DNA from: Candidatus Nealsonbacteria bacterium
Lineage (GTDB): Bacteria; Patescibacteriota; Minisyncoccia; Minisyncoccales; PWPS01
Assembly (NCBI GenBank): GCA_003557645.1
Contig: PWNV01000020.1
Coordinates: 14,328-78,327 of the forward strand
Length of the DNA: 64,000 nt
Direction: 5' to 3'
The translations under genes and the position numbers were made by a program. The first letter of the stretch is position 1. Each line of letters opens with the position of its first letter. The notes beneath the pieces were generated by a model. The model did no database searches. It was given only the letters and a program-made list of their open reading frames with translations, and was not told the DNA's origin. This document shows positions 18,670 to 62,474 of this stretch, piece after piece.

Positions 18670-19224
18670 TTAAAGCAAAGCTCTCAGCTTTTCTGAATTC
18701 TCTTTAAGTTCGGGAAGCAAAGGGTTCTCCGGCCAAGCTTTTTCTATGTTTGAGACAAGCCGAAGGCAGTGATTAATTTTTTGCTCCTTAGGAGCGTTAA
18801 ACTTAGAAAAGGAGCTATCTCCTATTTTATCAATATCATGTAAAAGATCACTTGTATTATGTATTATATCAGCTGACTTTATCAGCAAGCTGCCTTCGCT
18901 TGCGCCTTTTATCTTCTCTTCCGCCTTGGCTTTTCTTTCCTCCCAGGAGCTTGCGTCACTTTCTGTGACTTCCGCTACAAGGCTCTCCACTCTCTCTCCA
19001 AAATGATTTCTTATCTCTGAAAAAGAAACATTGCAATCTTCTACTACATCATGAAGCAAGGCGCCACAGATCAGATCTTCATCACCCCCTAACTTAGAAA
19101 TAATCATTGCAACACACAACGGATGAACAATATAGGGAATATCGCTTCCTTTTCTTTTTTGTTTTCGATGTGCCTTTTCAGCAAAAGCAACAGCTTCTTG
19201 TATTTTTCTGCTAAATCTTTTCAT
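18670..19224 (-). CDS. HD-domain protein resembling the (p)ppGpp hydrolase domain of RelA/SpoT (small alarmone hydrolase-like)
   Basis: 184 aa. AHRKQKRKGSDIPYIVHPLCVAMI...ALLHDVVED...FGERVESLVAEVTE follows the RSH hydrolase pattern. There is no synthetase domain. Confidence 0.75.
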   Translation of the reverse strand: MKRFSRKIQEAVAFAEKAHRKQKRKGSDIPYIVHPLCVAMIISKLGGDEDLICGALLHDVVEDCNVSFSEIRNHFGERVESLVAEVTESDASSWEERKAKAEEKIKGASEGSLLIKSADIIHNTSDLLHDIDKIGDSSFSKFNAPKEQKINHCLRLVSNIEKAWPENPLLPELKENSEKLRALL

Positions 19225-20231
19225 TAGATTTTTCTGAGCTTATCTTTAAGAAGATTGATTCGAAACAAAAGATCCTTCAACTCTTCACCTTGTTCTGGGT
19301 CTAGTTCTATTGTTTTGATTAATGATTCCTCCAATATGCGGATACAACTATCTATAACGTATTTCGTGTACTTATAATCCACTCCCCTACAACCTTCATT
19401 GATATAAAAACGATTGAAAAGCTGATATTGACACTTAGAAACAAGGAGATTAGAGTACCAAAAAAGATCTGCTGCAGGAATAGTAAAAATCCAAAAATCA
19501 TTATAGTGTTTCGCTTCTCCTGCTACCTCAAAAAGATCATCACACCACTCCTTTGTTTCCAGATAAAGAGGGTCCTTTTTAAAATTAGTAGGTTTCTTTT
19601 TAATGCTATTTATCTCCTCCTCGCGAAGTGTCCTAAAAATTGCCTCTTGATGAAGGTAAACAATGTTTTTTTGGCCTTTTCGGCAAATTGGACATGATTT
19701 CCATCCACAATAATTTCTTTTCCAAGTACAATCAAACCAACGCGGAACATCTTTTTTGCTTAAATAGTTTTTATAGATGTCCCTTATATTCTTTTGAGAA
19801 AAAAGAACATTATTCAAAAGCACCTCTAAACTCTTATACACAGACGGGGGAAGATTGCTTATATCTAATGAAGAATCATATTCATCCTTATAGTGCTTCT
19901 CCATTAAAAAAATTAATTCATCAATAAAAGAGCAAAGAGCTCTCCTTTCTTCTTTTAGATTTTTAGGAGAAAAAGCAACAAGACCCCTTGTCGCCCTTAT
20001 TATTACGTCTCTAACTTTTGCCGAATCATTTTCAATATTTTCCAATATAAAATTTGAAAAATAACAAAAGCTTTTCTTTCTGCTTTTTGCTGCACTGCTA
20101 CAAAGATGATCAGCCAACTCAATCCTTTCCTTTTCGCTTACCTGTTGCAAGTTTCTTATTTTTTCAGAAAGTCTTGCTTCTTTTGATTTTTCTCTATAAA
20201 TTTTTCTTTTTTTTGTGTATATCTTTTTCAT
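19224..20231 (-). CDS. hypothetical Cys-rich protein (335 aa)
   Basis: ORF translationally coupled on both sides. It has a basic N-terminus and a central zinc-ribbon-like CTWKRNYCGWKSCPIC. I recognise no family. Confidence 0.7.
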   Translation of the reverse strand: MKKIYTKKRKIYREKSKEARLSEKIRNLQQVSEKERIELADHLCSSAAKSRKKSFCYFSNFILENIENDSAKVRDVIIRATRGLVAFSPKNLKEERRALCSFIDELIFLMEKHYKDEYDSSLDISNLPPSVYKSLEVLLNNVLFSQKNIRDIYKNYLSKKDVPRWFDCTWKRNYCGWKSCPICRKGQKNIVYLHQEAIFRTLREEEINSIKKKPTNFKKDPLYLETKEWCDDLFEVAGEAKHYNDFWIFTIPAADLFWYSNLLVSKCQYQLFNRFYINEGCRGVDYKYTKYVIDSCIRILEESLIKTIELDPEQGEELKDLLFRINLLKDKLRKI

Positions 20232-33387: not shown

Positions 33388-34173
33388 TTATACAAGCCCC
33401 GCAAGCTGAATTTTGTTATTATCTGCAATAAAGTCAAATTTTCCTTCTATCTGAAAATCATCAAAACAAAGCTTCTTCCCTTGAAAATCATAAAAAGAGC
33501 CCCCTGCCTCATGTAAAAATAGAAGACCCGCCGCTAAGTCATAAAAAGGAATTTGGAAGGTAATGTATCCATCTACTCGCCCAGCTCCTAAAAAAGCAAG
33601 CTCAAGAGAGGCTGATCCTATCTTCCGTAAATCTTTGGATTGTGGATAAATGCAAGAAAGAAACTCTACAATTCGCTCTTTGTTTTTTTCTCCTCCCTCG
33701 CAAAAGACAATGTACGCCTTTTCTCTTTTTCCGATAGCAGATACTCTCACTCTTCTCTTCTTCTTGTTTTTAAGATCAATTAAAAAAGACCCTTTCCCCT
33801 TAACCGCTAAAAATCTTTCTTGTAACGCCGGCGCCTCCATGACACTCACCAAGGGCTCCCCATCTTTCCATAATGATATCGCTACAGAAAAGAAGGGATT
33901 GTGATTTTCAAAGTTTCCAGTGCCATCCAGCGGATCTACAACCCAAACAAAAGGACTATCTTTTTTTACAAATCCTGTTTCTTCTGTAAAATATGAGTGA
34001 GAAGGATATTCATCTTTTATAGAGGCCATAATAAGATCATCTGCAACCTTATCAAAAACACTTTTTACCTCCTTGCTTGTCCCTCTTTTTCCAGCCTTTT
34101 CTCTACGAAAGGAGTTATAAAGAATTTTTCCTGCCCTATTAGCTGTTTTTATTGTAAAATTAAGATAACTCAT
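33388..34173 (-). CDS. suhB: inositol monophosphatase family protein
   Basis: 261 aa with FTEETG, WVVDPLDGTGNF and IGSASLELA motifs. Confidence 0.85.
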   Translation of the reverse strand: MSYLNFTIKTANRAGKILYNSFRREKAGKRGTSKEVKSVFDKVADDLIMASIKDEYPSHSYFTEETGFVKKDSPFVWVVDPLDGTGNFENHNPFFSVAISLWKDGEPLVSVMEAPALQERFLAVKGKGSFLIDLKNKKKRRVRVSAIGKREKAYIVFCEGGEKNKERIVEFLSCIYPQSKDLRKIGSASLELAFLGAGRVDGYITFQIPFYDLAAGLLFLHEAGGSFYDFQGKKLCFDDFQIEGKFDFIADNNKIQLAGLV

Positions 34174-34187
34174 AATTAAAAATATTT

Positions 34188-35438
34188 ATGCACATAAAAG
34201 AAATTACTATAAATCATTATAAGAGCATCAAGAAACCTATGCACATTAGAGACATTTCCGACTTTCAGATTCTTGTAGGAACCAATAACGCGGGAAAAAC
34301 GAACATTCTTGACGCAATCAATCTTTTCTTTGACCAAAACGTGGACGCCGAAAGATTTTTTGATGAAAGTGCTAATCTTGAAATTATTCTAACCCATAAA
34401 GGAGAGTCACACAAGTTATCTTATCGGGGAGGCGAAAGCTCTTATAAAGAACATAATTTTAAAAAGTATTTTGTTCGCATTAATAATTCTCACAATTATC
34501 ATGATGTTGCAAGAAAAATAGAAAACTTTAAAAAAGAACATCCTAAAAATTACCAAGATTTTTCTATTGCACTAAAAGAAAATTTTAAAGACATAGAAGT
34601 TAGCGAGGAGCTTTTTCTATCAAATGTTTTTGCTGACAATAAAGAAAGATCAGTAGAAAGAATAGGGTCTGGGTTTAAGCGTCTTTTTGTAATTTTATTC
34701 TATGTGTTCCACCCTCAATATAAAGTTATACTCATCGATGAACCAGCAACCGATCTTCACCCCTCAGTGATAAGAAAGTTTCTTAATATTTTAAGCGCAA
34801 AAAAACTTGATAAACAAATTTTTCTTACCACTCATCATCCAACTTTTGTGCAAGCAAAGTATCTTCCACAAACATGGAGAGTTTTCCGTGAGGAAGAAGG
34901 GAGCACTTCTCTTTGCGGATTTTCAAAGAGAAAAGTTGACGTTAGTCGCTTTATTCAAGAGATCAATGATGACAACTCAGGAATGCTTTTCTCGGACAAG
35001 GTTTTGCTTGTAGAAGGTGTTTCAGACCGTATTTTTATAAGAGAAATGGTTAACCGTTTTTATAGAAAAGACAAAAGTATAAAAGTGGTATATACGAGTG
35101 GCAAAGGATCAATAGATATCTATGCCAACCTCTGTGAAACTTTCCGTATTCCGTATGCAATAATGCTCGATCGTGATGCAGTAAGCTCAAGCTCTCTCCA
35201 AAGAGTTAAAAAATTTCCTGTCTTCAAGAAAAAAGTTTCTCTTCATAATAAAATTGAAGAGCTAAAGAAAAGAGAAATTTTTATCCTGGAAAAAGATTTA
35301 GAGCACGTATATCCACAAAAATACCCAAGAAAAGAAACCAAACCCCTTACAGCTCTTTTCGTTTCTCAGAACATTAAAAAAGAAGATCTTCAGGACAAGA
35401 GAATGAAAACCATCAAAGAGATGTTAGAGCAAATTTAA
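34188..35438 (+). CDS. OLD-family nuclease: ABC-type ATPase fused to a Toprim domain (compact, 416 aa)
   Basis: Walker A GTNNAGKTN, signature-like GSGFKRLF, Walker B VILIDEPATDLHP and H-loop FLTTHHP. The Toprim domain has VLLVEGVSDRIFI and IMLDRDA. Confidence 0.8.
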   Translation: MHIKEITINHYKSIKKPMHIRDISDFQILVGTNNAGKTNILDAINLFFDQNVDAERFFDESANLEIILTHKGESHKLSYRGGESSYKEHNFKKYFVRINNSHNYHDVARKIENFKKEHPKNYQDFSIALKENFKDIEVSEELFLSNVFADNKERSVERIGSGFKRLFVILFYVFHPQYKVILIDEPATDLHPSVIRKFLNILSAKKLDKQIFLTTHHPTFVQAKYLPQTWRVFREEEGSTSLCGFSKRKVDVSRFIQEINDDNSGMLFSDKVLLVEGVSDRIFIREMVNRFYRKDKSIKVVYTSGKGSIDIYANLCETFRIPYAIMLDRDAVSSSSLQRVKKFPVFKKKVSLHNKIEELKKREIFILEKDLEHVYPQKYPRKETKPLTALFVSQNIKKEDLQDKRMKTIKEMLEQI

Positions 35439-37115
35439 ATCAATCTCTCTTTTCGCCTCTAAGTAAAGAGCATTACTCCACGCCTGATTCAGGCACCCCT
35501 CGCTTCTGTTTTCACTTGCACTACTTATCTCGGTGTGCGCTCCTATCACTCCTTTCCACATTAGCTCTTCCTTACTCGCTTTCATTATTTTTTTAATATA
35601 AGAGGCGTATTTTTTCTTGTTAGTTCTATATAAAACAATAGCCACTAAGTTGTTTAGGTAAAACCAGCTATCACCATTGTGATAGCTTTTTGCATCTTCT
35701 CCGGTGTGTTCTGGATAAAATTTTGAACTACTTTTATCCAAGGTAGCAACACCGCCCCACAAAAGCCATAAATGTGAAAGAGCGCTATCAAAACAATCCT
35801 GCCATTCACTTTTCTTTAAGAGGTGGGGATATATGTAGGCTGCAATAAAAATGTTGGGACGAATATCTTTATCAATCTCCTTGCTAGAAGGGCAGTATCC
35901 ATCAAAAAGAATTGTTCCGTCAAAAAATAAACTTCTTACCTTCCTTCTCATTTCACTCTCAAGTTTCATGTAAAAATTTCTCTCTCCTCTTCTTTTGGCA
36001 AGATTAGATGCAAGGCGATACATGTTTAATCTCATTGCTTGAAGCTCAATTCTTGCCCCACTACGATTTAAACTATCCATCCAAGTTTCTTGCGGCTTAT
36101 TGACGTTAAGACCGTCTTCTGTAAACCCAAGCAGAAGGTCTTCTAAATATTCTTTAAGTGTCTTTCTAATTCTTTCCTTCTCTACCTCTCCCATAAGGGG
36201 CAAAACATCCTCTAGTCTTTTAAATATCCATCCAGGAGCATCCATATTTAATCTTCCCCTAGGACCACTTTCGAGCGCACTTTCAAGTAATCGCAGAAAG
36301 ATAGCTTTCCCTTTTTCTTCCTCAATTTTAAGCACAGAACGAAGCGAAATAGCTTCATCGCGTGGCCAAAACTGAAAAAACCAAGGAAAACCGGCATAAA
36401 TTCCAGGGGGCTTCATACTTAAAAGATCAGCAAGTGATTTTTCTGCGCACAGAACATCTAAATCCCCTTTCCCTGTTGTCGTATTACGAACATGAAGTTT
36501 GTTTGCCTCCCTAAGAGCTTCTTCTTTTTCTTGCGCAATAGCAAAAACAAAGCGTTTACCATAAAGAGCAAGTCCATGAAAAACTTTCCTTTCAAACGGC
36601 TTAGAGTTTCGCTTTTTATCTAATTCATAATAACGTAAAAAATTATCTTTCCTCCCTAATCCTTTTTCACACCTTACGGCTAAAAAAAATCCGTTGCTAA
36701 ATTTTACTAAGAGGGATTCTCCCACCACCTCCACCTCGTAATCAGTGGGGTCTTCGTGAGAGTAAGACTCTCTCATATCCAAAAAAACATTTACTTTCCT
36801 TTTTTCAGTTAATTCATAAATCAGAGTATGAGCTGATTGAGGAAGAAAAAAAAGCTCCTTTAATTTTTCTCTTCTCCTTTCAACGTAATGGAAATTATTT
36901 CTTATTTCTAGGATACTTCCCGCTTCTTCTACCTCAATGTTTTCTATTACCTTATAGAGGTTATCTCTAAGCGCAGCAAACCACCCTTCATAACGACTTT
37001 TCGGCTTTTCATTTAACCACAAATAATCGCCATCTCGATTAGAAAGCATAAAGCCACACTCCTCCGATTCTTTTGTTTCTTGGATTTCTTCGTTTAGAAA
37101 GTGAGTTATTCTCAT
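35424..37115 (-). CDS. amylo-alpha-1,6-glucosidase / glycogen debranching enzyme (GDE_C family)
   Basis: 563 aa. GFPWFFQFWPRDEAISL and an (alpha/alpha)6-barrel-like C-terminus (YHNGDSWFYLN) are typical of archaeal/bacterial GDE. Confidence 0.8.
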   Translation of the reverse strand: MRITHFLNEEIQETKESEECGFMLSNRDGDYLWLNEKPKSRYEGWFAALRDNLYKVIENIEVEEAGSILEIRNNFHYVERRREKLKELFFLPQSAHTLIYELTEKRKVNVFLDMRESYSHEDPTDYEVEVVGESLLVKFSNGFFLAVRCEKGLGRKDNFLRYYELDKKRNSKPFERKVFHGLALYGKRFVFAIAQEKEEALREANKLHVRNTTTGKGDLDVLCAEKSLADLLSMKPPGIYAGFPWFFQFWPRDEAISLRSVLKIEEEKGKAIFLRLLESALESGPRGRLNMDAPGWIFKRLEDVLPLMGEVEKERIRKTLKEYLEDLLLGFTEDGLNVNKPQETWMDSLNRSGARIELQAMRLNMYRLASNLAKRRGERNFYMKLESEMRRKVRSLFFDGTILFDGYCPSSKEIDKDIRPNIFIAAYIYPHLLKKSEWQDCFDSALSHLWLLWGGVATLDKSSSKFYPEHTGEDAKSYHNGDSWFYLNNLVAIVLYRTNKKKYASYIKKIMKASKEELMWKGVIGAHTEISSASENRSEGCLNQAWSNALYLEAKREIDLNLL

Positions 37116-38896
37116 TTTTGTGCAGCATTATGTGCTTCGATGTAGTTTTTAACAAAACTTTCCCAGTCAGCTTGTGAGGCTATCTTCCTTGCTTCAATTT
37201 TATTCTCCACTCGTTCTCTTCTTTTGTTCTGTGAAAATTTGTATAGAAACTGATATAGATCCTCTACTATTTTATTATCATCTTTTTTCTCTCTTTCTAA
37301 AATGTAGATACCGGGTCTCCCTTTTTTCTTTTTTAATTTATTTCGAAATCGCCCAAACCCGGCAAGATCAGTTGTTACCGACGAAACGCCTAGCGCAGCA
37401 GCTTCAAGTGGAGTGTATCCCCACGGCTCATAAAAACTTGGAAAGACGCCAAGATGACAAGCCTCAAGAGCTTCTTCGTAACTAAGATTAGAAAGTCCAT
37501 CATATCCTGTAAGATAAATCGGATAATAAATGACTTTAACTCTATCTTCTTCTTGATTTAAAAGTTCTGCTCTTTTTAGCTCCTCCATGATCTCATCGTG
37601 TGAATGAGTGAGATGGTGAGTTACTAAAGGAGGAGTGCTCTCTTTTCTTTTTAATCGATGTAATTTTTTTTCAATTTCAAAAAGATAATCTTCGCTAATG
37701 AGATTCTCTTTGCTAAGATCCTTTTCTTGTAAGGTGTTATACAAAATTCTTTCTTCTATTTCTGGAAAAGTTCCTTCTAAATAATCACGTAGATCTCGGA
37801 AATATTCTAGATTTTCTAAAAGAGAAGGATTCACTCCCTTTGCTTGGGAAGGAATAAAAAGAAAGGCAACTATAGTGCGGTCACTGTTCTCCTTAATCAT
37901 TTTACGATTTAGTTTTCCCAGGGACTGAATGAATACATCTATCCCTTTAGCACGAAGCTCATTTCTTCCAATAATAAAATAAAATAGTGTCTTTTCTATG
38001 TCAAAAGTGTAGTAAGGGAAGAAAAAAGCAGAAACAAAGCTTCGTAGTCTTCTTCTTTGCAAACGATGCTTTATCACTATCTCTTCAAAACTTAAAAACT
38101 CCTCAATATCAAGCCCATTGGGAAGAATAAAATCTGGCTTTCTTTCAAGAAATTTTTCCGCTTCTATTCCAGTAATTTCGCTCACCGTAGTAAAAACATT
38201 ACATGTACGAGCAGCCGCCTTTTCAATAATGTGCTTAGGATAAACATTATACTTTCTCGCCTCTTCTTCTGGATTAATCTCGTTTAATGACATGTAAAAA
38301 TTAATACTATGGAAAGCTAATGTCCTTCCAAGACTTGTTGCATGAGTAGTAAAAACAGTTTTAACTTCTGTGTTTTTAGAATCTAAATACAGCAACCCTG
38401 CCGCAGAAAGCCACTCGTGAAAATGGGCAGTAATCTTTTTGCTCTTATATGATGAGGAAAGTTCTCTTATAAGCCGGCCTGTTGCATAAGACCAGCAGAC
38501 TGGTTCATCAAAGTCGTATCCCGCCGCCAAAGAGTCCACTTGATAATTGTCCCACAGCTCCTTTTTAATATCATTCACTTTAAAAAAGTAATCAACAAAA
38601 TCAACAAGAATAACAAGTGGTTTTCCTTTAATAAGCCATCTTCCGTAATGGCACCTTATCCCTTCTTTTTCAAGATCTTGGAACACTTTCTTTACTTCTT
38701 TGGGAGCAGCCTCTTCCCGAAACTCTCCCCGAGATTTTTCCGTGTAAGGGCCAATCAAGCAATAATCTTCTCCGTAGTACTGCATCATACGATTTGCCTT
38801 TGATTCAATTACTCGATAAATCCCACCCACCCGATTGCAAACCTCAAAAGATACTTCGTATAATTTATTACTCTTTGGTTTAATATTTTTTTGCAT
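37112..38896 (-). CDS. glycogen synthase of the eukaryote-type GT3 family
   Basis: 594 aa. YEVSFEVCNRVGGIYRVIESKA, HFHEWLSAAGLL, FTTHATSLGR and FPSFYEPWGYTPLEAAA closely follow the signature blocks of animal/fungal glycogen synthase. Confidence 0.85.
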   Translation of the reverse strand: MQKNIKPKSNKLYEVSFEVCNRVGGIYRVIESKANRMMQYYGEDYCLIGPYTEKSRGEFREEAAPKEVKKVFQDLEKEGIRCHYGRWLIKGKPLVILVDFVDYFFKVNDIKKELWDNYQVDSLAAGYDFDEPVCWSYATGRLIRELSSSYKSKKITAHFHEWLSAAGLLYLDSKNTEVKTVFTTHATSLGRTLAFHSINFYMSLNEINPEEEARKYNVYPKHIIEKAAARTCNVFTTVSEITGIEAEKFLERKPDFILPNGLDIEEFLSFEEIVIKHRLQRRRLRSFVSAFFFPYYTFDIEKTLFYFIIGRNELRAKGIDVFIQSLGKLNRKMIKENSDRTIVAFLFIPSQAKGVNPSLLENLEYFRDLRDYLEGTFPEIEERILYNTLQEKDLSKENLISEDYLFEIEKKLHRLKRKESTPPLVTHHLTHSHDEIMEELKRAELLNQEEDRVKVIYYPIYLTGYDGLSNLSYEEALEACHLGVFPSFYEPWGYTPLEAAALGVSSVTTDLAGFGRFRNKLKKKKGRPGIYILEREKKDDNKIVEDLYQFLYKFSQNKRRERVENKIEARKIASQADWESFVKNYIEAHNAAQK

Positions 38897-40091
38897 TTTG
38901 TTTGTTAATTCTTAATTTTAAATCATTTAAAGTATTCATAAAGCAAATAAAAGCATCATAAGGAGAATCGTAGGGACTAAAATAACTATGAACTTCTCCA
39001 TCTGCCAATGTTTTGGTTGACATGTAATAAAATTGATCCGAGGTTTGTAGTCTTCGCCAACTATTGATAATATTCTCATCTCGGGTCTCTAACACATCCT
39101 CCTCTATCTCATATAGTTTCAGCAAGGCGTCTCTTTGCATGTCATTTCCAATCCAAGCTGAAAGATCGCGCTCACTGTCTGCCCAAGAAGTAAGATATGG
39201 AACATCAACCTCATCACGAACTTGATACCTTTCCATCGCCTCACTTAAAGTTAAAAAATCATTATCTGGATTCCTTAATACTTCTTCTGGAAGATGCTTA
39301 AGAAAATTAAAAATTCCCGTTTCTTCCCATTGATGTTCCCCAAACGTCTCATAATCCATAAATAGATTAATAATCTCTCCGTTACCGTTAAACTGTGATA
39401 TCCATCGCCCGAACTTTTCTGCAGTAAGAGGATGTTCTTTCCACTGGCGAGCAGAAAACCGAAATGCAATATCATCAGATAAACGATAATTTTTCAAAAA
39501 AAGTTTTATTTTTTCTGTTCCTTTTGGTTTGTAAAGAAAGTTTGGACTTCTCCATCCAAGAACTCGGTCTAAACCCTCGCCCATTACACCGTAAAGGCCC
39601 ATTGTTTCTGCAATTTTGGCAATATCATTACTATAAGCAAGCTCTGTGCAACGAAAAATACGGGGCTCAACAGAAAAAAGTGACTTTATTTTTTCTCGAT
39701 GCGCCTTTACCTGCTCCTTAAATTCTTTAAGAGAATGCAGAAAAGCAAAAGAATGATGATATGTCTCTGATAAAATCTCTACCCTTCCAGTTTTTATCAA
39801 ATCCTGGAAAGATCTAAGCGTTTCCGGAGAATAGTTTTCCATTTGCTCTAAAACCACACCTGAAAAAGAAAAACTAAAACGAAATTCAGGATATTTCCTT
39901 AAAAGCTCGAGAAGAATTTTATTTGTTGGAAGATAGGATTTTTGAGCAACTTTTTCCATAATCCTTTGATTGTTTAAATCTCCCTCCCCTGCATCATTGA
40001 AATAATTTGAATCATTTCCAATGTCAAAAAAAGAATACTTTTTTATTCTATAGGGTTGATGAACTTGAAAATAAAAACAAACTGATGGCAT
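38880..40091 (-). CDS. glycoside hydrolase family 57 (alpha-amylase/4-alpha-glucanotransferase-like)
   Basis: 403 aa with FYFQVHQPYR, GRVEILSETYHH and FMDYETFGEHQW (GH57 conserved regions). Confidence 0.8.
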   Translation of the reverse strand: MPSVCFYFQVHQPYRIKKYSFFDIGNDSNYFNDAGEGDLNNQRIMEKVAQKSYLPTNKILLELLRKYPEFRFSFSFSGVVLEQMENYSPETLRSFQDLIKTGRVEILSETYHHSFAFLHSLKEFKEQVKAHREKIKSLFSVEPRIFRCTELAYSNDIAKIAETMGLYGVMGEGLDRVLGWRSPNFLYKPKGTEKIKLFLKNYRLSDDIAFRFSARQWKEHPLTAEKFGRWISQFNGNGEIINLFMDYETFGEHQWEETGIFNFLKHLPEEVLRNPDNDFLTLSEAMERYQVRDEVDVPYLTSWADSERDLSAWIGNDMQRDALLKLYEIEEDVLETRDENIINSWRRLQTSDQFYYMSTKTLADGEVHSYFSPYDSPYDAFICFMNTLNDLKLRINKQNAKKY

Positions 40092-40094
40092 GGA

Positions 40095-41303
40095 TTATGA
40101 TAATAATGAGGTATATATATTTATACACTTTCTTGCAGCATTTTTCCAACTTATCTTAGGAAGTTCTTTTAATCCTTCCTGGCAAAGACATTGTGAAAGA
40201 GGGCTGTACTGCAGCGCGGATATAATTTTATTTGCCATCTCTCTTGTATCCCAAAAATCTACCTTTAACGCATGATACAGAACTTCAGAAACTCCGGACT
40301 GTTTAGATATAAGAACTGGGGTTCCACTTGCAAGCGCTTCCAAGGGTGTGATTCCAAACGGCTCAGAAACAGATGGCATTACAAAAAGGTCAGCTAATCG
40401 ATACATTTCCTGAAGTCTTTCACCTCGTAAAAAGCCAGTAAATAAAACCCTATCAGAGATTCCAAGTTTCGCGGTTTCCTCCATTATTTGTTGTTCCATA
40501 TCACCCGAACCACACAAAACAAAAAAAACATTGTCCATACAAGAAAGGACTTCTTTCGCACTTCGAATAAAGTAATCCGGTCCCTTTTGAAGAGTGATTC
40601 TTCCTGTGAAAAGAACTATTTTATTCCCTTTTTCCTTTATTTTATGTATATTTTTAGAGGTAAAATCACAATCGAAGCAATCAATTCCATTGTGCACTAC
40701 TACTATTTTTTCTGGAGAAATTCCGTAATTTTCAATAACTATATTTTTTGTAAAAGCACTAACCACAATAACTTTATCTGCCTTCTCCATCCCCTCTTTT
40801 TCAATTTGATAAACTCGAGAATCAATACCCTCTCCCCCTCCTCTATCAAATTCGGTAGCATGAACATGTACAACCAACTGTTTCCCCGTCCTCTCTTTTG
40901 CTTTTATTCCAGCTCCAAAGGAAAGCCAGTCGTGTGCATGGATTATGTCAAAGGTTTCTCTTTCCGCCAGATTACCACCATAAATAGCATACCTTAAAAC
41001 CTCTTCAAACAAACTCTGCCCATAAACAAGTCCAGGAGAAAAAGAAATAGCCCGAAAATACTCTGTTGATCCTAAATAAGGAGAAAGTGGAGAATCAAAA
41101 CGATGAAAATTCATATAAGATGTTTCTGGAGAAATAATCCTTAAAAATGAATCATCAATATCTTTATTCTTTTTGGGCAATACAAAGGTAATTTCAATTT
41201 TTTCCGCTACCAGTGCTTTAGTAAGTCCCTGGCAGGCAGTTCCAAGACCCCCACTATTGTGGGGAGGAAATTCCCATCCAAACATAAGGACCTTGGTTTT
41301 CAT
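40095..41303 (-). CDS. GT-B retaining glycosyltransferase, GT4/GT5 glycogen-synthase-like
   Basis: 402 aa with N-terminus FGWEFPPHNSGGLGTACQGLTKAL and C-terminus PSVSEPFGITPLEALASGTPV (EX7E-type). Confidence 0.75.
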   Translation of the reverse strand: MKTKVLMFGWEFPPHNSGGLGTACQGLTKALVAEKIEITFVLPKKNKDIDDSFLRIISPETSYMNFHRFDSPLSPYLGSTEYFRAISFSPGLVYGQSLFEEVLRYAIYGGNLAERETFDIIHAHDWLSFGAGIKAKERTGKQLVVHVHATEFDRGGGEGIDSRVYQIEKEGMEKADKVIVVSAFTKNIVIENYGISPEKIVVVHNGIDCFDCDFTSKNIHKIKEKGNKIVLFTGRITLQKGPDYFIRSAKEVLSCMDNVFFVLCGSGDMEQQIMEETAKLGISDRVLFTGFLRGERLQEMYRLADLFVMPSVSEPFGITPLEALASGTPVLISKQSGVSEVLYHALKVDFWDTREMANKIISALQYSPLSQCLCQEGLKELPKISWKNAARKCINIYTSLLS

Positions 41304-41328
41304 AAAAAATTCAAATTATAATATTTTT

Positions 41329-41961
41329 TTAAAAAGGAAGGTTGATTAAATCTCTAGGTTCTTCAATTAAGACATCAGGACGAGATCGCAACAATGCTTC
41401 CCTCGAACTAAGGCCCCAGGTAACAGCAACTGTATGAACTCTAGCCGCCTTTCCTGCTTTTATATCTCTCGTTTCATCGCCTATATATATAAAAATATCG
41501 CTGCCTTTCTTTACTTTTTTGATCGCTTTGTCCTTGCTAAAAAGTCCTGTAGAAAGTACAAAATCAAAATAATTCATTTTATTGTTCTCTAAAAAATCAA
41601 CTACATTTTTTCTTGAGTTTGAGCTCAAAATTCCCATCGTATTCCCTTGGTTTTTAAGGAGTTGCAAGGCTTCATTCATCTCTTTTTTAACTGAAATTCT
41701 TTTCATTTCCTTATTCATTTCATTTTTTGATTTGCGTACTACAAAAAAAAGCTTCAAAAGAGAAACATTGAAATCCCTATAAATACTCTCTATTCCTTCT
41801 TCACGAGCTCTGCGAAACATCTCCGCACTAAATTCGTTCCCTCCCTCCTTTGCTAAAATTTTGTTCAACGTTTCTACGGCCAAAGGAAGCGTATCTGCAA
41901 CTGTCCCATCAAAATCAAAACAATATATTTTTTTCTTTTTAATTGCTTGATTGATAGCCAA
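41329..41961 (-). CDS. HAD-superfamily hydrolase (phosphoglycolate phosphatase / sugar-phosphatase-like)
   Basis: 210 aa with motif I FDFDGTVADT, motif II LSSNS and motif IV GDETRD. Confidence 0.8.
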   Translation of the reverse strand: MAINQAIKKKKIYCFDFDGTVADTLPLAVETLNKILAKEGGNEFSAEMFRRAREEGIESIYRDFNVSLLKLFFVVRKSKNEMNKEMKRISVKKEMNEALQLLKNQGNTMGILSSNSRKNVVDFLENNKMNYFDFVLSTGLFSKDKAIKKVKKGSDIFIYIGDETRDIKAGKAARVHTVAVTWGLSSREALLRSRPDVLIEEPRDLINLPF

Positions 41962-51214: not shown

Positions 51215-51823
51215 TTACTTACCTGTAAAGTAAAAACTACTTCTTAGTCTCTGAGATGCTTCCGCCAAATTAATGTGTAAACTTTCTCCAAGACAGAGGG
51301 CAGAAAGAACTCCATAAATTTTCTTCCTCTTTACTTTTCCTTTAATCCAAAAAGGAACAATATTTTCTTTATAGTTAATTTTGAAATTTGTCTCTTTTTC
51401 TCCTTTACTAATATCACTGATATAAAAATCTGCATTTTTCTTTTCAATTCCAAATGTTGAAACCTTTTGAAAGTTTTTTCCTCGAATCTTGTTAGCTACA
51501 GAAAAATCGATTGCTAAAAATCCACTCTCTGGAAATTGTCTCAAGAATTTTTTTATTCTTGTTTTTTTTCTTTCTTGAGTAACAAGAAGGAAAAACTTAG
51601 ATGGAAAGAAGCTCACTATTTTCTGTGGGTTAATCTCAGGATCATCTTCAACAATTACCACCTCGCTTTTTAAAAGAGAAAAAAAATAATAGATTTTTGG
51701 CAAACCCTTAAATCGAAAAACCGAATACTTATCTTTTAAAATAAAATGCAGGGCTTGAGCTGCCTCTTCATTCTGTTCTCCGGTAATAAGTACAACTTTT
51801 TTGTTTTTAATTATTTTTTTCAT
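51215..51823 (-). CDS. Mur-ligase (MurF-like) central-domain remnant with degenerate P-loop
   Basis: 202 aa at the position after ftsI. VVLITGEQNEEAA sits where Mur ligases have ITG(T/S)NGKTT. AIDFSVANKIR, STFGIEKKNADFY and YGVLSALCLGESLHINLAEASQRL follow the MurF order. There is no C-terminal domain. Confidence 0.45.
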   Translation of the reverse strand: MKKIIKNKKVVLITGEQNEEAAQALHFILKDKYSVFRFKGLPKIYYFFSLLKSEVVIVEDDPEINPQKIVSFFPSKFFLLVTQERKKTRIKKFLRQFPESGFLAIDFSVANKIRGKNFQKVSTFGIEKKNADFYISDISKGEKETNFKINYKENIVPFWIKGKVKRKKIYGVLSALCLGESLHINLAEASQRLRSSFYFTGK

Positions 51824-55277: not shown

Positions 55278-57791
55278 CTATGGTGCTAGTTTTCTTACCT
55301 CAAAATGCTCTTCATCAACAGTAAACCTATCCCCTTCTTGGATATATCCCTCTAGAACTGCAGAGGCAAGCTTGTTACTAATATTGTCTTGTATAGCACG
55401 CTGCATTTCCCTTGCTCCAAAAACAGGATCATATCCTATCTCCATAATTTTTTCTTTTAGAGCTTCAGTAATCACAAAATGCATATCTTTCTTAATAAAA
55501 TTCTTAGCCATTTCTTCCAGCTGAATTCCAGCAACATCAATAAGATTTTCTCTGCTTAATGGTTTAAAAATAATAACATCATCAAAGCGATTAACAAACT
55601 CTGGACGAAATACAGATGTTTGAAAAAGTCTTTTTAATATTTTTGCCTTTACTTTTCCCCATCCCAGTTTCTGCTCGATAGCATCAAGAATAATTTGATA
55701 TCCGGCATTGCTGGTGGCAATGACCATAGTGTTACGAAAATCGACCCTTCTTCCCTCTCCATCAGTAATATGCCCTTCATCCAATATTTGCAAAAACAAA
55801 TTCAATATATCCGGGTGCGCTTTCTCAATCTCATCTAACAATATAAGGGAAAAAGGATCTTCTCTCACTCCAGAGGTTAAGACTCCTTCTTCTTGTGATG
55901 ATCCAATAATGCGTTGTACATCGGAAATATTTTGAAATTCGGACATATCGATACGATTTATCTTTTTTTCCGAACCAAAATAAACATCTGCAATCGCTTT
56001 TGCCATTTCAGTTTTACCCACTCCCGTTGGCCCTAAGAATAGAAAGCCTCCTATCGTCCCTTTCCTTACACCCACATCCGCTCTAGAGCGTCTAAGGGCC
56101 GAAGAAACCGCTCTAACAGCGTTTTCTTGATTAACAATTCTTTTATGAATTAAGTCCTCCAAATTAAGAAGTACCTCTTTTTCTTTTTCATCCAACCTTC
56201 CTACCGGAACCTCGGTCTTTTCTGATATGATTTCCGCAACATGATCTTGCAAAACAATATCTTCTTCTTTTTGATCAGCGTGAACTACTGCTTCCTCAAG
56301 CAAAGTAAAAGCTTTTTCAGGGAAGGCTTCATTTTGCATATACTTATCCGAAAATTCTATCGCTTTCTTGATTGATCCAAAAGAAATTAATTTATGATAC
56401 TTGTTCTCTAAAGAGAGAGCTAGTTTCTCTAACAAAATAAGTGCTTCTTCGTGTGATATTTTTTTCATTTCTACTTTCTCCATGAGAGAGAAGAGAGTAG
56501 AGTTCTTTTCAATGTTTTTTCGAAAACCTGCAAAATCAGTAACACCGATCAATCGAAACGAAGGAATGTGTAAATAAGGTTCTAAAATTCCAGAAATATT
56601 GATTACTCCTGGCCTCTGTTCTCCTGCTATGAATTTGTGAAGATCATTGATAACCAGTATAACGTTTCCTGCTTTCACCGCCTCACCAAACATTTTATCT
56701 AATATCTTTTCTGTTTCTTCTAGTCCCTCTGTGCGTGCCAAAACTGACGAAAGATCAAGTTCTAAAATACGTAAATAATTGGTCCCCTGAAGCCCTTCTC
56801 CAAGAAAAGATCTTCTGGCAATCTCCTGAATTATACTTCTCCTTCCTGCTCCTGAATCTCCAACCAAAACGACACTGTTTATTTCTTCACGAGACATAAC
56901 TCTTTCCAGTGATTTTATTTCCTTTCTGTGTCCAACTGTTTCTGGGAATCCGGATAATTTCATTTTCTCCGTCCAATCTATAGAGAAATTATCAAGAAGA
57001 GGAGTATATCCAAAATTCCATTCTTTTCCTATGCTTCCTAGCTTAATTAAATTCTTATAAAGCAACGGGCTCTCTTTTTTCCTAAGTCGTTTCCGCCATG
57101 AAGTAAGATCATACATGTCATCCTCAGTCATTCCATTATAATATATAGTATCTCTTAAGTAATTATTGTGTTTGCTTAGTGCTACAAATAAATCTCCAGG
57201 AGTTATTCTTTCGTTCTTCCTTCTTGCAGCAACTACCAAAGCCTCTTTCATCGTCTTCGTAAAACAAGGAGATTTTTCTTTATTATTAATCATCTCTCTC
57301 TCATCAAAAATAAACTTCAAGTCTCGGAGAACATTTTTTTTACTAATTAATGCACGATGAAAAACGAAATCCATATCCCGAGCTTTTTTTAATAGATAAT
57401 AAAGCAAAAGATAAGAGTCTGCTCCCCCCTTTCTTTCGACTGCCTCCATGATGCAAGCACTTTCAAAATTTAAAAACTCTGCAAGATTAACTTCGTCAAG
57501 GTGACTAAGAGCATTCTTTTTGCTTATTAAGAGCTTTGGTCTTGTAACGGAATATTTAAAAAACAACTCCAGCTGTAAAAAAATTAAAAAAAGGCAAAAG
57601 AAGAAAAAACTAATCTCGAGAAAGTAAGAGCTTGTATTAAGAGTTTTTTGTAACGCAAAGCCTAAAAGAGACAAGATGGATAACACAAAAAAGAAGACCT
57701 TCAAAGCTCCAGCATTTCCAAAGACTGGAATCTTGCCGATTAAAAGGGCTTTATATATGGCTGATTTTTTTAAATCGAACTTAATATCCAT
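55278..57791 (-). CDS. membrane-anchored Clp/Hsp100-type double AAA+ ATPase with degenerate first nucleotide-binding module
   Basis: 837 aa with 2 N-terminal TM helices and Clp_N-like repeats. D1 has Walker A GDSGAGRRS (Lys replaced) and Walker B ILVINDLH. D2 is canonical: GPTGVGKTE, LILLDEIEKAH and the ClpB_D2-small domain. Confidence 0.85.
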   Translation of the reverse strand: MDIKFDLKKSAIYKALLIGKIPVFGNAGALKVFFFVLSILSLLGFALQKTLNTSSYFLEISFFFFCLFLIFLQLELFFKYSVTRPKLLISKKNALSHLDEVNLAEFLNFESACIMEAVERKGGADSYLLLYYLLKKARDMDFVFHRALISKKNVLRDLKFIFDEREMINNKEKSPCFTKTMKEALVVAARRKNERITPGDLFVALSKHNNYLRDTIYYNGMTEDDMYDLTSWRKRLRKKESPLLYKNLIKLGSIGKEWNFGYTPLLDNFSIDWTEKMKLSGFPETVGHRKEIKSLERVMSREEINSVVLVGDSGAGRRSIIQEIARRSFLGEGLQGTNYLRILELDLSSVLARTEGLEETEKILDKMFGEAVKAGNVILVINDLHKFIAGEQRPGVINISGILEPYLHIPSFRLIGVTDFAGFRKNIEKNSTLFSLMEKVEMKKISHEEALILLEKLALSLENKYHKLISFGSIKKAIEFSDKYMQNEAFPEKAFTLLEEAVVHADQKEEDIVLQDHVAEIISEKTEVPVGRLDEKEKEVLLNLEDLIHKRIVNQENAVRAVSSALRRSRADVGVRKGTIGGFLFLGPTGVGKTEMAKAIADVYFGSEKKINRIDMSEFQNISDVQRIIGSSQEEGVLTSGVREDPFSLILLDEIEKAHPDILNLFLQILDEGHITDGEGRRVDFRNTMVIATSNAGYQIILDAIEQKLGWGKVKAKILKRLFQTSVFRPEFVNRFDDVIIFKPLSRENLIDVAGIQLEEMAKNFIKKDMHFVITEALKEKIMEIGYDPVFGAREMQRAIQDNISNKLASAVLEGYIQEGDRFTVDEEHFEVRKLAP

Positions 57792-59598: not shown

Positions 59599-61383
59599 AT
59601 GCAAATTTTTGAACTTTATTTTAATCCAGAAAATAAAGAGAAGCTGTTAGAAAGTTTTGTTCATCAGCCAAAGAACGCTTATGAGCGTAAGCTGGGTAAG
59701 ATTTACATGGTTGGAGAGATTCTAGAGATAAGCGAAGAAGACTCCCCTCTTTTGCAGAATATATTCCATATCGCAAAAGAAAAATATTATAAAGACACCT
59801 CTCTTTTGCCCGAAAAGGCTCTCGAAGAAACCTTAAAGAAAATAAACCTTTTTCTAGAAGATAAAGGATATCAGGGAAAAATGAACATCGCCCTTCTTTC
59901 TTCTAAAAATTTCTCCATTCATGTTGCTAGAATAGGAAAAATAAAAATTGTCCTTCTTGCTAGTGGTAAAATAAAAAATATCTGCGAGGACCTAAGTGAA
60001 TCACAAGGAAACGTTTTTCATAACATAATTTCCGGAAAAATGAAAAAGGAGGACAAGCTCCTTGTATTAACTCCTGAAATTTATCATTCTTTCGTAAAGG
60101 GAAAGCTCTTTCAAGAAATGATGGAAAAACCTTTAAGCGATGATTTGATGGAAAAAATTTCTTCTTTGCAAAAGGAAAAGTTTCCCGCCGTTTCTGGTCT
60201 TTCTTTGATTATGGACCATGCTTTAAACCTAGAAGAAAAACCACAGATAATAGCAGGTACAAAGAAAAAAACATTTTCTTTTCAAAAATTATTTAATGAA
60301 GTTATCCTATCACTTTCAAAAATCAAGAAACCCGATTTTAAAACACCTAAAATTAACATTAGCAAGAAGCCATTAACACTTCTTTCTCTTCTTCTTCTTG
60401 TTGTCTCTATAGGTTACCTTACAATAAGTATAGAAAATAATATAAGAACCGGAAAACAAATGGAAGCCCTTTCCAAGATAGAAGAAAACATCGCCAAAGC
60501 TACCGAAGAAAAAAATATTGCTGTTTTAAAAGAAATACTTGATGAAATAGAAGACCTAAAAAAATCTAGAACAAATCTAAGTCAAGAGATTAACGATCAA
60601 CACTCTCTTCTCGAAAGTAAATTGCTTCATCTCTCACAATGGGAAAAAGTAGAAGACATTGAGCTAATTAAGAGTTTTGAAGATATTAATCCAGAAAACT
60701 TTTTACTTGCAGAAAATCGCATCTACCTTTTTACATCAGAATCACCTGAACTCTTTGCTCTAAACCTTGAAACAAGGGAAATAGAGAATAAATACTCCCT
60801 TGTCTCAGATAATGGTATCACGCTATCTTCCTTTTCCCAGAACAAACCAATGTTTTATGCACCCCCTAAACATTTCTTCTCTATTGAGGGTGGGGCACTC
60901 TCTACCTCTGAAATTTCTAAAGATGACCAAGACTACATTTCGCTTTCCTCTTTCTTAGGGGTTCCATACTTTCTCCAGAACAATGGAGAAATAGTTTCTT
61001 ATCGAAATAAATACCCCGGAACATGGCTAGAAAAAGATGAAACAAGAATAAAAGATCCACTTGCTCTGGCAATTGATGGCTCCATCTTTGTTCTTGATAA
61101 AATCAACAAAACACACCGTTACTACAAGGGACGATATGAGGAAAAAATTAATTATTCTATTTTCCCTCCTTTCCGAGCAGATAAAATAAAAACTTCTTAC
61201 GAGCTGCCCCTTTTCTTTTTAGATGTTCAAGGGAAGCGTATAATTATTGGAAGTAAGGAAGGAAAAATTGAAAAGCAACTCTACCTTCCAGAATTAACAA
61301 ATCCGAAGGATATTGCTATCACTTCGGATGGAAAAAAAATATACCTCTTGGATAACCAAGAGATATATCTAATAGAAATTTAA
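59599..61383 (+). CDS. bitopic membrane protein: N-terminal PPM/SpoIIE-like fold (tentative), TM helix, coiled coil, C-terminal beta-propeller-like repeats
   Basis: 594 aa with TM helix LTLLSLLLLVVSIGYLTISI at ~aa 260. The C-terminus has repeated IYLF/IFVLD/IYLLD strands. I recognise no catalytic metal-binding Asp pairs. Confidence 0.65.
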   Translation: MQIFELYFNPENKEKLLESFVHQPKNAYERKLGKIYMVGEILEISEEDSPLLQNIFHIAKEKYYKDTSLLPEKALEETLKKINLFLEDKGYQGKMNIALLSSKNFSIHVARIGKIKIVLLASGKIKNICEDLSESQGNVFHNIISGKMKKEDKLLVLTPEIYHSFVKGKLFQEMMEKPLSDDLMEKISSLQKEKFPAVSGLSLIMDHALNLEEKPQIIAGTKKKTFSFQKLFNEVILSLSKIKKPDFKTPKINISKKPLTLLSLLLLVVSIGYLTISIENNIRTGKQMEALSKIEENIAKATEEKNIAVLKEILDEIEDLKKSRTNLSQEINDQHSLLESKLLHLSQWEKVEDIELIKSFEDINPENFLLAENRIYLFTSESPELFALNLETREIENKYSLVSDNGITLSSFSQNKPMFYAPPKHFFSIEGGALSTSEISKDDQDYISLSSFLGVPYFLQNNGEIVSYRNKYPGTWLEKDETRIKDPLALAIDGSIFVLDKINKTHRYYKGRYEEKINYSIFPPFRADKIKTSYELPLFFLDVQGKRIIIGSKEGKIEKQLYLPELTNPKDIAITSDGKKIYLLDNQEIYLIEI

Positions 61384-61828: not shown

Positions 61829-62344
61829 TTAATTCTCCTTTTTAGCGTTCGCTAAAACATAAAGAAGTCCTCTTGTATTTCCTTCTAATACATACAAAAG
61901 ATTTTTCATAGGAGCTGCCATGGTACCGAGAAGCTTTGCCATAAGAACTTCTCTAGAAGGCAACTCTGCAAGACTTTTAACTTCTTCAAAACTTATTACA
62001 CTGTTTTCAAAAAATCCTCCAAGAATCACAATGGCCTCATCCTTGGCGAATTTATTTACAATTTTTGCGGTTCCTACTCCATCTTGATAACTAAAAATAA
62101 ATCCCACCTCTCCGTCAAATGACTGAGGATCAAAGTCAATCCCCTCTTCCTTGAAGGCAATTTTAGCTAGGGTTTTTCTTGCAACCATCATTTTTGCTTC
62201 AGATTTATGAAGCTCACTTCTAAGGCTATGGGCACTTTCTCCTTTCATCCCCTTGAAATTAATGAAAAATACCCCCTTTTGTTTGGCAAGATTTTCCCTA
62301 AACTGTTTTACTATTTCCTTTTTCTTTTCTTTATTAATGGTCAT
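61829..62344 (-). CDS. rplJ: ribosomal protein L10
   Basis: 171 aa immediately upstream of rplL, with the typical L10 N-terminal domain and C-terminal L12-binding helix. Confidence 0.92.
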   Translation of the reverse strand: MTINKEKKKEIVKQFRENLAKQKGVFFINFKGMKGESAHSLRSELHKSEAKMMVARKTLAKIAFKEEGIDFDPQSFDGEVGFIFSYQDGVGTAKIVNKFAKDEAIVILGGFFENSVISFEEVKSLAELPSREVLMAKLLGTMAAPMKNLLYVLEGNTRGLLYVLANAKKEN

Positions 62345-62450
62345 AAAAAAACTGCTTTTAAAAAGCAGACAGTAACATTGAAATCTCTGAAACTATCCTC
62401 GGTAGGAATTTACGTGAACTTTTCACTGCCTACTGTCTGCGGATTCTTTT
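62345..62450 (-). promoter_or_regulatory. structured rplJ 5' leader (candidate L10-leader autoregulatory RNA)
   Basis: The 130-nt untranslated gap has a perfect 10-bp long-range pairing GCAGACAGTA (62440..62431) / TACTGTCTGC (62374..62365). It is followed by an alternative mini-hairpin CTGC-TTTTTAAAA-GCAG and TTTTTTT just before the ATG. Confidence 0.5.
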
Positions 62451-62474
62451 TTCTTGTTGTAATTATAAGAAACT

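Follow-up and report, generated by a model that had tools for sequence, protein, structure and literature searches.

We analysed a 64,000-nucleotide (nt) stretch of DNA from a Candidatus Nealsonbacteria bacterium (GenBank assembly GCA_003557645.1, contig PWNV01000020.1, positions 14,328 to 78,327 of the forward strand; hereafter the window). This member of the candidate phyla radiation (CPR) carries there a compact cluster of five genes built around predicted alpha-glucan enzymes. An earlier note, prepared from the sequence alone, had described five contiguous, partly overlapping minus-strand genes; the open reading frames (ORFs) lie at exactly the coordinates it claimed, spanning 35424-41961, the junctions and Pfam matches agree with the identities it gave, and every motif it quoted is present in the translations. 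The cluster, together with the only other glucan-related gene of the window, comprises:

41329-41961, minus strand: HAD-IA family phosphatase (210 aa, TTG start; HAD_2), first gene of the operon and lineage-specific
40095-41303, minus strand: GT4/GT5-like retaining GT-B glycosyltransferase (402 aa; Glycos_transf_1/Glyco_transf_4/Glyco_transf_5), resembling archaeal glycogen synthase
38880-40091, minus strand: GH57 enzyme of the 'alpha-amylase' subfamily (403 aa; PF03065)
37112-38896, minus strand: GT3 glycogen synthase, catalytic core only (594 aa; PF05693)
35424-37115, minus strand: GH133-type (GDE_C) amylo-alpha-1,6-glucosidase-like protein (563 aa; PF06202), from the glycogen-debranching enzyme (GDE) family
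8163-9041, minus strand: GalU-like UTP-glucose-1-phosphate uridylyltransferase (292 aa), 27 kb from the cluster and outside the operon

The genes are tightly packed, with overlaps of 4 nt between GDE and GT3 and 17 nt between GT3 and GH57, and gaps of 3 nt between GH57 and the GT4-like gene and 25 nt between the latter and HAD. A tRNA-Gln gene lies 64 nt upstream of the cluster, and at its far end a gene for an OLD-family ATPase converges on GDE, the two 3' ends overlapping by 15 nt. Predicted promoters and terminators in the region were no more numerous than in shuffled sequence and do not allow operon boundaries to be called. In the 25-nt HAD-GT4 spacer (41304-41328, minus strand), shortly before the GT4 start, stands a hexamer that matches TATAAT perfectly and could be an internal promoter letting GT4-GH57-GT3-GDE be transcribed without HAD; the promoter scan gave it no statistical support. 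Sequence prediction found no signal peptide or transmembrane segment in any of the five cluster proteins, and the system is therefore taken to be intracellular; the operon holds no transporter gene. The GC content of the cluster (0.35-0.37) is that of the rest of the window (~35% throughout), and relatives keep the flanking synteny (dnaX, OLD ATPase, Germane), and on these grounds a recently transferred island was rejected.

The 594-aa protein is a GT3 glycogen synthase. In a check set beforehand, PF05693 (Glycogen_syn) matched it over its full length, scoring 526 bits (cut-off 27; residues 14-592 aligned to model positions 1-582 of 639), which assigns it to GT3 and not to GT4/GT5, as had been proposed; the motifs EVCNRVGGIYRVIESKA, HFHEWLSAAG, FTTHATSLGR and FYEPWGYTPLE are all present. 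The alignment with human GYS1 (422 bits, residues 11-591 against 28-611) is almost gapless and includes the eukaryote-type helical insertions, and, spanning residues 11-591 of 594, it leaves no N- or C-terminal phosphorylation tails. The catalytic E-x7-E pair is E490/E498, and every UDP-glucose-binding residue taken from the list for human GYS1 (PMC9287172) is conserved (G24, H185, A186, R191, R311, K317, P491, W492, G493 and Y494), with F347, Y461 and Y473 as the uridine sandwich; GYS1 numbering was rebuilt from a printed alignment, in which His287 of the GYS1 paper was mismatched (Phe at 287), and that residue was not used. The conserved site suggests UDP-glucose as the donor. The pocket for the phosphate of glucose-6-phosphate is also kept (R559, R562, K566 for R586, R281 for K301, and H481), and the regulatory helix shares its first three arginines with GYS1, while the glucose and trans-loop contacts differ from those of the human enzyme (H291 to E271, Q294 to V274). 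Activation by glucose-6-phosphate is thus possible given the phosphate pocket and put in doubt by the glutamate replacing trans-loop His291.

GT3 proteins of this kind are widespread among prokaryotes. A protein search returned >6,500 relatives at E<1e-10, the named ones being 'glycogen/starch synthase' from Patescibacteria, Woesearchaeota and Nanoarchaeota, and a genome scan at species level put the number of prokaryotic species with GT3 at 596 or more. The bearers include Paceibacterota, Azambacteria, Woesearchaeota, Nanoarchaeota, Altiarchaeales and Nanohaloarchaea, with more distant matches in Planctomycetota, Bacteroidota, Spirochaetes, Lentisphaerae and others; the closest species-level match is a Candidatus Paceibacterota metagenome-assembled genome (MAG) at 70% identity. 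GT3 had already been documented in DPANN archaea, Euryarchaeota, the PVC group (Planctomycetes, Verrucomicrobia and Chlamydiae) and Bacteroidetes in a 2024 review (PMC11046441), in which CPR/Patescibacteria are unmentioned. In a neighbour-joining tree of 50 sequences, built from one alignment with a single eukaryotic sequence rebuilt from the printed alignment, CPR and DPANN formed one GT3 clade against all other prokaryotic GT3 and human GYS1 in 100/100 bootstraps, and within it the CPR sequences grouped together in 69/100. This clade is the least similar to the human enzyme, with 30-38% identity to GYS1 (about 34-36% for the window protein) compared with 40-47% for Planctomycetota/Bacteroidota. 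The description of this GT3 as 'eukaryote-type' therefore stands at the family level only; the view that it is eukaryote-like in particular was rejected on the identities and the tree. DPANN-type GT3 genes also occur under odd taxon labels, on a 4.7-kb contig of a Campylobacterales MAG (L048) and in 'uncultured Methanosarcinales' third-party annotation MAGs (L009, L015, L016, L021). Some of these also carry GT4 and GH57, and they group with Woesearchaeota and Nanobdellati in the tree; the labels reflect either mis-binned or mislabelled MAGs, probably the case, or else horizontal transfer.

The genomic context of GT3 separates CPR and DPANN from other phyla as well. We searched 8 kb around GT3 in 80 species loci by tblastn with the partner proteins of the window. 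Among the 41 CPR/DPANN loci, GH57 was found in 25, an orthologue of the GT4-like gene in 18 (with 5 weaker matches) and GDE in 16; across the 39 loci of other phyla (Planctomycetota, Bacteroidota and others), GH57, GT4 and GDE each scored 0, and HAD was found in neither set. The differences (Fisher p = 3e-10 for GH57, 7e-7 for GT4 and 5e-6 for GDE) come from species that are not phylogenetically independent, and the counts are affected by contig ends as well as kinship, many of the partner-less CPR/DPANN loci being cut by contig ends. GT3 nonetheless clusters with its partners beyond chance. In none of the related loci did the GalU-like gene fall within 8 kb of GT3. CPR relatives with 60-75% identity in GT3 preserve the order GT4-GH57-GT3-GDE; the same genes are clustered in Woesearchaeota, Nanoarchaeota and Nanohaloarchaea, and in CPR and DPANN the GT4-like gene always has GH57 after it.

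Sampling from the GT4 side gave a second arrangement. Of six long CPR contigs, chosen for a GT4 homologue (56-59% identical) and regardless of GT3, one had the GT3-GDE version. On the other five (L088, L090, L091, L092 and a 126-kb JGI contig) the order was GT4-GH57-(small ORF)-GH15, the last encoding a glucoamylase, and neither GT3 nor GDE lay within 9 kb. A ROK sugar kinase is nearby in four of these five GH15-type loci, and glucose-6-phosphate dehydrogenase, phosphoglucose isomerase or 6-phosphogluconate dehydrogenase is near in three. Four of the five have an ORF of about 100-170 aa between GH57 and GH15, which in one case has a weak DUF5752 match. Because GT4-GH57 persists in five of the six contigs without a nearby GT3, these two genes constitute the invariant core, downstream of which lies either GH15 (plus kinase) or GT3 plus GH133. 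In the GH15-type operons the GT4-like protein is the sole candidate synthase, and its presence beside GH57 and GH15 in other CPR genomes, away from any GT3, argues that it is a synthase in its own right.

The GT4-like protein belongs to a large conserved CPR family (the top 120 matches are at least 55% identical) that is called 'glycosyltransferase family 4 protein' at NCBI and 'glycogen synthase' at JGI. In Pfam it matches Glycos_transf_1 (116 bits), Glyco_transf_4 (88 bits) and the starch-synthase N-domain Glyco_transf_5 (54 bits against a cut-off of 22.7). Both GT4 domains exceed their cut-offs, and the AlphaFold2 (AF2) model (predicted local distance difference test score, pLDDT, 84.5) matches GT4 structures at E ~1e-22 in Foldseek, which establishes a GT4 retaining transferase. 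The best NCBIfam model is that of GlgM (TIGR02149, glgA_Coryne), with a score of 132 bits that falls below its cut-off of 302. The motif NSGGLGTA is present in the translation. Among solved relatives, the small archaeal glycogen synthase from Pyrococcus abyssi alone aligns over the whole length (residues 3-399 against 3-429, 71 bits), with GGL (N-terminal), HxHDW, R..QKG and E-x7-E motifs in register; the alignments with GlgM, MshA and BshA do not begin before about residue 81-115, and that with the GlgM structure is limited to 115-343. Foldseek was of no use as a discriminator, since MshA, GlgM, BshA, sucrose-phosphate synthase (SPS) and the P. abyssi enzyme all fell within E 1e-23 to 1e-19, and with small-acceptor GT4 enzymes and glycogen synthase matching about equally, the predicted structure is compatible with either kind of acceptor.

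The GH57 enzyme (PF03065, 248 bits) is the most conserved product of the cluster, with 63-73% identity across its top 120 matches. Its five conserved sequence regions (CSRs) are readable as QVHQP (CSR1), GRVEIL (CSR2), RCTELA (CSR3, nucleophile E150), FMDYETFGEH (CSR4, proton donor D246) and LQTSDQFYY (CSR5). The resulting fingerprint, with Q at position 1, R at 12, T at 23 and YY at 35-36 in a protein of 403 aa, is that of the 'alpha-amylase' subfamily defined by Martinovicova and Janecek (PMC6037648), which has E/Q at 1, R/E (not W) at 12, T at 23, YY at 35-36 and a mean length of 414 aa. Branching enzymes instead show W at 12, L at 23, F plus a non-aromatic residue at 35-36, ~546 aa and a C-terminal helical domain, and 4-alpha-glucanotransferases show K at 23 and ~670 aa (PMC6037648). 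The earlier suggestion that GH57 supplies branching or 4-alpha-glucanotransferase activity thus fails as a class assignment: R, T, YY and the length rule out a fingerprint-type branching enzyme, and T at 23 and the length a fingerprint-type glucanotransferase. The AF2 model (pLDDT 80.4) finds its best fold match in the Thermococcus litoralis 4-alpha-glucanotransferase (E 1.8e-15), followed by amylopullulanases and branching enzymes; at ~15% identity throughout, Foldseek confirms the family and does not fix the reaction. To our knowledge, no structure exists for the 'alpha-amylase' subfamily. Its name is not to be read as a function. In Sulfolobus acidocaldarius, the GH57 gene amyA is co-transcribed with glgA, both are needed for glycogen, and markerless deletion of amyA abolishes accumulation (PMC8158581). 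By analogy with these genetics, part of the suggestion survives: a role in synthesis or branching is plausible, the fingerprint lowering the chance that the protein is a canonical branching enzyme and not the chance that it may branch.

Homology of the GH133-type protein is confined to PF06202 (GDE_C, 92 bits against a cut-off of 21), over residues 337-551 only (model 134-365). It matched no NCBIfam family, found nothing in a single-sequence search of the Protein Data Bank (PDB), and has no GH13 transferase half. When six orthologues were combined into a profile, this reached, weakly (E 1.3e-4), the glucosidase domain of eukaryotic GDE (8zeq, residues 1083-1167 and 1346-1453), aligning the motif PWFFQFWPRDEAISLR with CWGRDTFIALRG; the invariant PWFFQFWPRD of the orthologues falls on CWGRD, and D253 of this WPRD may be catalytic, as yeast mutagenesis would suggest. 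Deletion of the S. acidocaldarius GH133 gene glgX, or of its GH15 gene gaa, leads to hyper-accumulation of glycogen (PMC8158581; PMC11046441), the former supporting a degradative role for GH133. The fifth protein matches HAD_2 (107 bits, cut-off 23.8) and has readable DFDGT and GDETRD motifs, but specific NCBIfam equivalogs (PGP, PpaX, MupP and others) all scored below cut-off, and its best solved relatives in the PDB are generic PGP-like HADs. Relatives with GT3 69-75% identical have HAD-GT4-GH57-GT3-GDE: in L085 and L086/87 (GT3 75% and 69% identical, respectively) HAD adjoins GT4 although the upstream genes differ. Those with GT3 60-61% identical have the four-gene order without it, and neither L002-4 and L089 nor any of the 41 wider CPR/DPANN loci has HAD. 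Its listing as a cluster member therefore holds for the closest relatives and fails beyond them: it is a real but lineage-restricted addition.

The remainder of the window was searched for other glucan genes by scanning all ORFs of at least 150 aa against Pfam. None encodes GlgC, a GH13 branching enzyme, a GT35 phosphorylase, GH77, GH15, GT8 or phosphoglucomutase, bearing out the claim that the window has no glgC, glgB or glgP. The defining genes of the GlgC-GlgA-GlgB pathway (glgC, GT5 glgA, GH13 glgB) are absent from the 64 kb, and the statement that this is not the classical pathway is upheld to that extent. An 837-aa ORF (55278-57791) was considered as a glycogen phosphorylase and ruled out as a ClpB-type AAA+ protein. 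The gene described earlier as galU (8163-9041) is indeed GalU-like; its best NCBIfam model, TIGR01099 (galU), matches in full at 259 bits, below the cut-off of 326.8, with glgC at 34 bits.

The closest precedents are archaeal. Contiguous GT4-like, GH57 and GH133 genes with no canonical branching enzyme, the marks of an archaeal-type cluster, are all found here. The glg cluster of S. acidocaldarius, with a synthetic amyA-glgA operon and a degradative glgC-gaa-glgX operon (PMC8158581), likewise places a small synthase beside a GH57 of 'alpha-amylase' type, includes a GH133 'GlgX' of amylo-1,6-glucosidase type and has no canonical GH13 or GH57 branching enzyme. Its GH15 glucoamylase is shared with the CPR relatives that have no nearby GT3 and is missing from the window. 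It differs in that amyA precedes glgA, whereas here the synthase precedes GH57; in addition, the window synthase bears only a distant resemblance to GT5 and counts as GT4 in both Pfam and NCBI, a GT3 gene is inserted as an extra, glgC is lacking with a GalU-like gene elsewhere, and the host is a bacterium. A GT4-GH133-GH57 cluster is recorded in Picrophilus (PMC11046441). Nearer still are the glycogen genes of DPANN archaea (GT3, GT4, GH57, GH133 and GH15; Ca. Nanohalobium constans and Woesearchaeota; PMC7443923, PMC11046441), whose GT3 falls in the same 100/100 clade and whose neighbours of GT3 are 42-57% (GT4), 44-69% (GH57) and 30-50% (GDE) identical to those of the window; the same open questions on priming and branching apply to both. 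DPANN loci are often split or divergent, whereas the window order GT4-GH57-GT3-GDE is strictly collinear and overlapping, with HAD added. The gene set is of the archaeal/DPANN type already known and does not amount to a new pathway. The locus contributes the CPR host, the insertion of GT3 into a strictly collinear operon of four genes, the existence of two natural variants of the operon, and a HAD gene confined to this lineage.

More distant systems share single components. With eukaryotic GYS1/Gsy2p the window GT3 has in common the full-length fold, the E-x7-E pair, the UDP-glucose site and the three regulatory-helix arginines, and the GH133 protein is homologous to the C-terminal domain of eukaryotic GDE, without the GH13 half. 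Unlike the eukaryotic system, it combines about 34-36% identity with a tail-less protein and the His291-to-Glu exchange in the trans-loop, and the window has no GT8 glycogenin. The GT3 of Planctomycetota/PVC and Bacteroidota is of the same family and similar length, but forms a separate clade nearer eukaryotes and has GT4, GH57 or GDE partners in 0/39 loci. The classical GlgC-GlgA-GlgB-GlgP-GlgX pathway presumably yields the same end product, a storage alpha-glucan, from ADP-glucose rather than the probable UDP-glucose here.

Taken together, it is reasonably probable that these genes form a cytoplasmic operon of the archaeal/DPANN type with which a Paceibacteria-like CPR bacterium makes and breaks down a storage alpha-glucan resembling glycogen. 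From the observed families, active-site residues and conserved gene order we infer the following activities, donor and division of labour. The GalU-like enzyme encoded elsewhere in the window would make UDP-glucose. The GT4/GT5-like enzyme, by its context and homology, would be the ancestral synthase of the module, starting and extending alpha-1,4 chains with no separate primer protein, and GH57 would aid it by trimming, transferring or branching chains, in analogy to Sulfolobus AmyA. GT3 would be an added second synthase, primer-dependent and elongating from UDP-glucose the glucan ends made by the first; it may respond to glucose-6-phosphate, and the lack of tails suggests that it would do so without eukaryotic phospho-control. 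GH133 would remove alpha-1,6 branch stubs during mobilisation, and HAD might be a lineage-specific accessory, probably a sugar-phosphate phosphatase. Combining a self-priming with a primer-dependent synthase would allow such a division of labour without a dedicated glycogenin analogue.

Several observations weigh against this interpretation. We know of no characterised enzyme from the CPR/DPANN module. The GT4-like protein misses the curated GlgA models by a wide margin (TIGR02095, 74 bits versus 328; NF001899, 50 versus 459), its HNSGGLG motif has an invariant Asn where GT5 synthases have the lysine of KxGGL, and its fold is equally near glycogen synthase and small-acceptor GT4 enzymes (MshA, GlgM, BshA, SPS). 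In some CPR/DPANN loci with full flanks GT3 has none of these partners within 8 kb (L010, L023, L032, L034), and the activities of archaeal GT3 are uncharacterised (PMC11046441). The window is also without a canonical branching enzyme, phosphorylase or phosphoglucomutase, and for that reason a complete pathway is not demonstrated.

Three other explanations were weighed. As the earlier note proposed, the GT4-like protein could act strictly as a glycogenin analogue, making no more than a short primer attached either to itself or to a small acceptor and leaving GT3 as the main polymerase. Such a split would suit the primer dependence of eukaryotic GT3 and the failure to find a glycogenin homologue in DPANN (PMC11046441), as well as the absence of GT8 from the scanned window ORFs, the co-location of GT4 and GT3 in many CPR/DPANN loci and the small-acceptor enzymes among the closest fold matches. 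Yet it would leave a primer-maker with no nearby polymerase in the five of six contigs that pair GT4-GH57 with GH15, the GT3 of other phyla does without this GT4 nearby in 39/39 loci, and the GT4-like protein has a GT-B fold unrelated to GT-A glycogenin; we regard this model as unlikely. The adjacency of HAD and GT4, kept in the closest relatives despite differing upstream genes, would fit a different product, if the GT4-like enzyme glucosylated a phosphorylated small acceptor (as do GlgM, SPS or MshA) and HAD then removed the phosphate to give a compatible solute or maltose-type intermediate in place of a polymer. The top Foldseek matches (MshA, GlgM, BshA and SPS) and a 69-bit GlgM match in the sequence search point the same way. 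Against this, most GT4-GH57 loci have no HAD, the universal partner of GT4 is an alpha-glucan-active GH57, the curated GlgM model is missed, the N-terminal acceptor domain aligns with glycogen synthase and not with GlgM, and no GlgE is nearby; both the small-glucoside route and a non-polymeric product are therefore given very little weight.

A mainly catabolic or scavenging locus, in which GH57 and GH133 degrade host or environmental glucans and the transferases are secondary, appears equally improbable. CPR bacteria are thought to be partner-dependent, and a debranching enzyme, an alpha-amylase and a GH15 glucoamylase from the secretome of Ca. Nanohalobium constans supported growth on starch and glycogen (PMC7443923). 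The five proteins here, however, have neither signal peptides nor hydrophobic segments and come without a transporter gene, two of the five genes encode nucleotide-sugar glucosyltransferases, and the Sulfolobus homologue of GH57 is required for synthesis, not degradation. Beyond the storage operon favoured above, a bolder proposal would make GT4-GH57-GT3-GH133 a self-contained machine, free of glycogenin and GlgB and shared between CPR and DPANN by inter-domain transfer, with GT4 as primer-maker and GH57 as a non-canonical branching enzyme; we consider this doubtful.

Several features of the surrounding DNA were recorded in passing. The gene converging on GDE (34188-35438, plus strand) encodes an OLD-family ATPase/TOPRIM nuclease (AAA_15/AAA_21 plus an OLD-like TOPRIM), a defence-type gene that is the convergent neighbour after GDE in all close CPR relatives (L002-4, L005, L085-87 and L089; 45-56% identity), in unusually stable synteny for such a gene and a metabolic operon. 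Beside it, at 33388-34173 (minus strand), lies an inositol-monophosphatase-family gene, also found near the cluster in L002-4, whose best NCBIfam matches are all below cut-off (HisN 134 bits, IMPase 118, bifunctional FBPase/IMPase 117); a gluconeogenic FBPase that feeds glucan synthesis is one possibility. Housekeeping genes of the window (dnaX, cysS, dnaB, recR, tig, murC, pbp, mraZ/mraW and L10) are typical of a small bacterial genome. A ribosomal protein L10 leader (Rfam RF00557, 51.9 bits) occupies 62337-62460 (minus strand), upstream of the L10 gene at 61829-62344. Three ORFs have no significant Pfam family (E<0.001): 59599-61383 (plus strand, 594 aa), 19224-20231 (minus strand, 335 aa), which has a sub-threshold RING_ZNF598 match only, and 51215-51823 (minus strand, 202 aa).

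Storing glycogen counts as a hallmark of DPANN archaea (PMC7443923). The gene set is known from archaea and is not a new kind of pathway, but its presence in more compact form in CPR, the other great radiation of ultra-small, probably symbiotic cells, points to gene sharing between CPR and DPANN and to a common carbon-buffering strategy. The 2024 review lists as open how GT3 is primed without glycogenin, what the glycogen-associated GT4 enzymes do, and whether branching in organisms without GlgB is the work of 'amylase-type' GH57 enzymes (PMC11046441). The two operon variants, GT4-GH57-GH15-glucokinase and GT4-GH57-GT3-GH133, amount to a natural experiment on these questions of priming, GT4 and GH57. 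Were the GT4-like protein indeed a primer-maker and GH57 a branching enzyme, the compact operon would offer a ready-made system for addressing both priming and branching.

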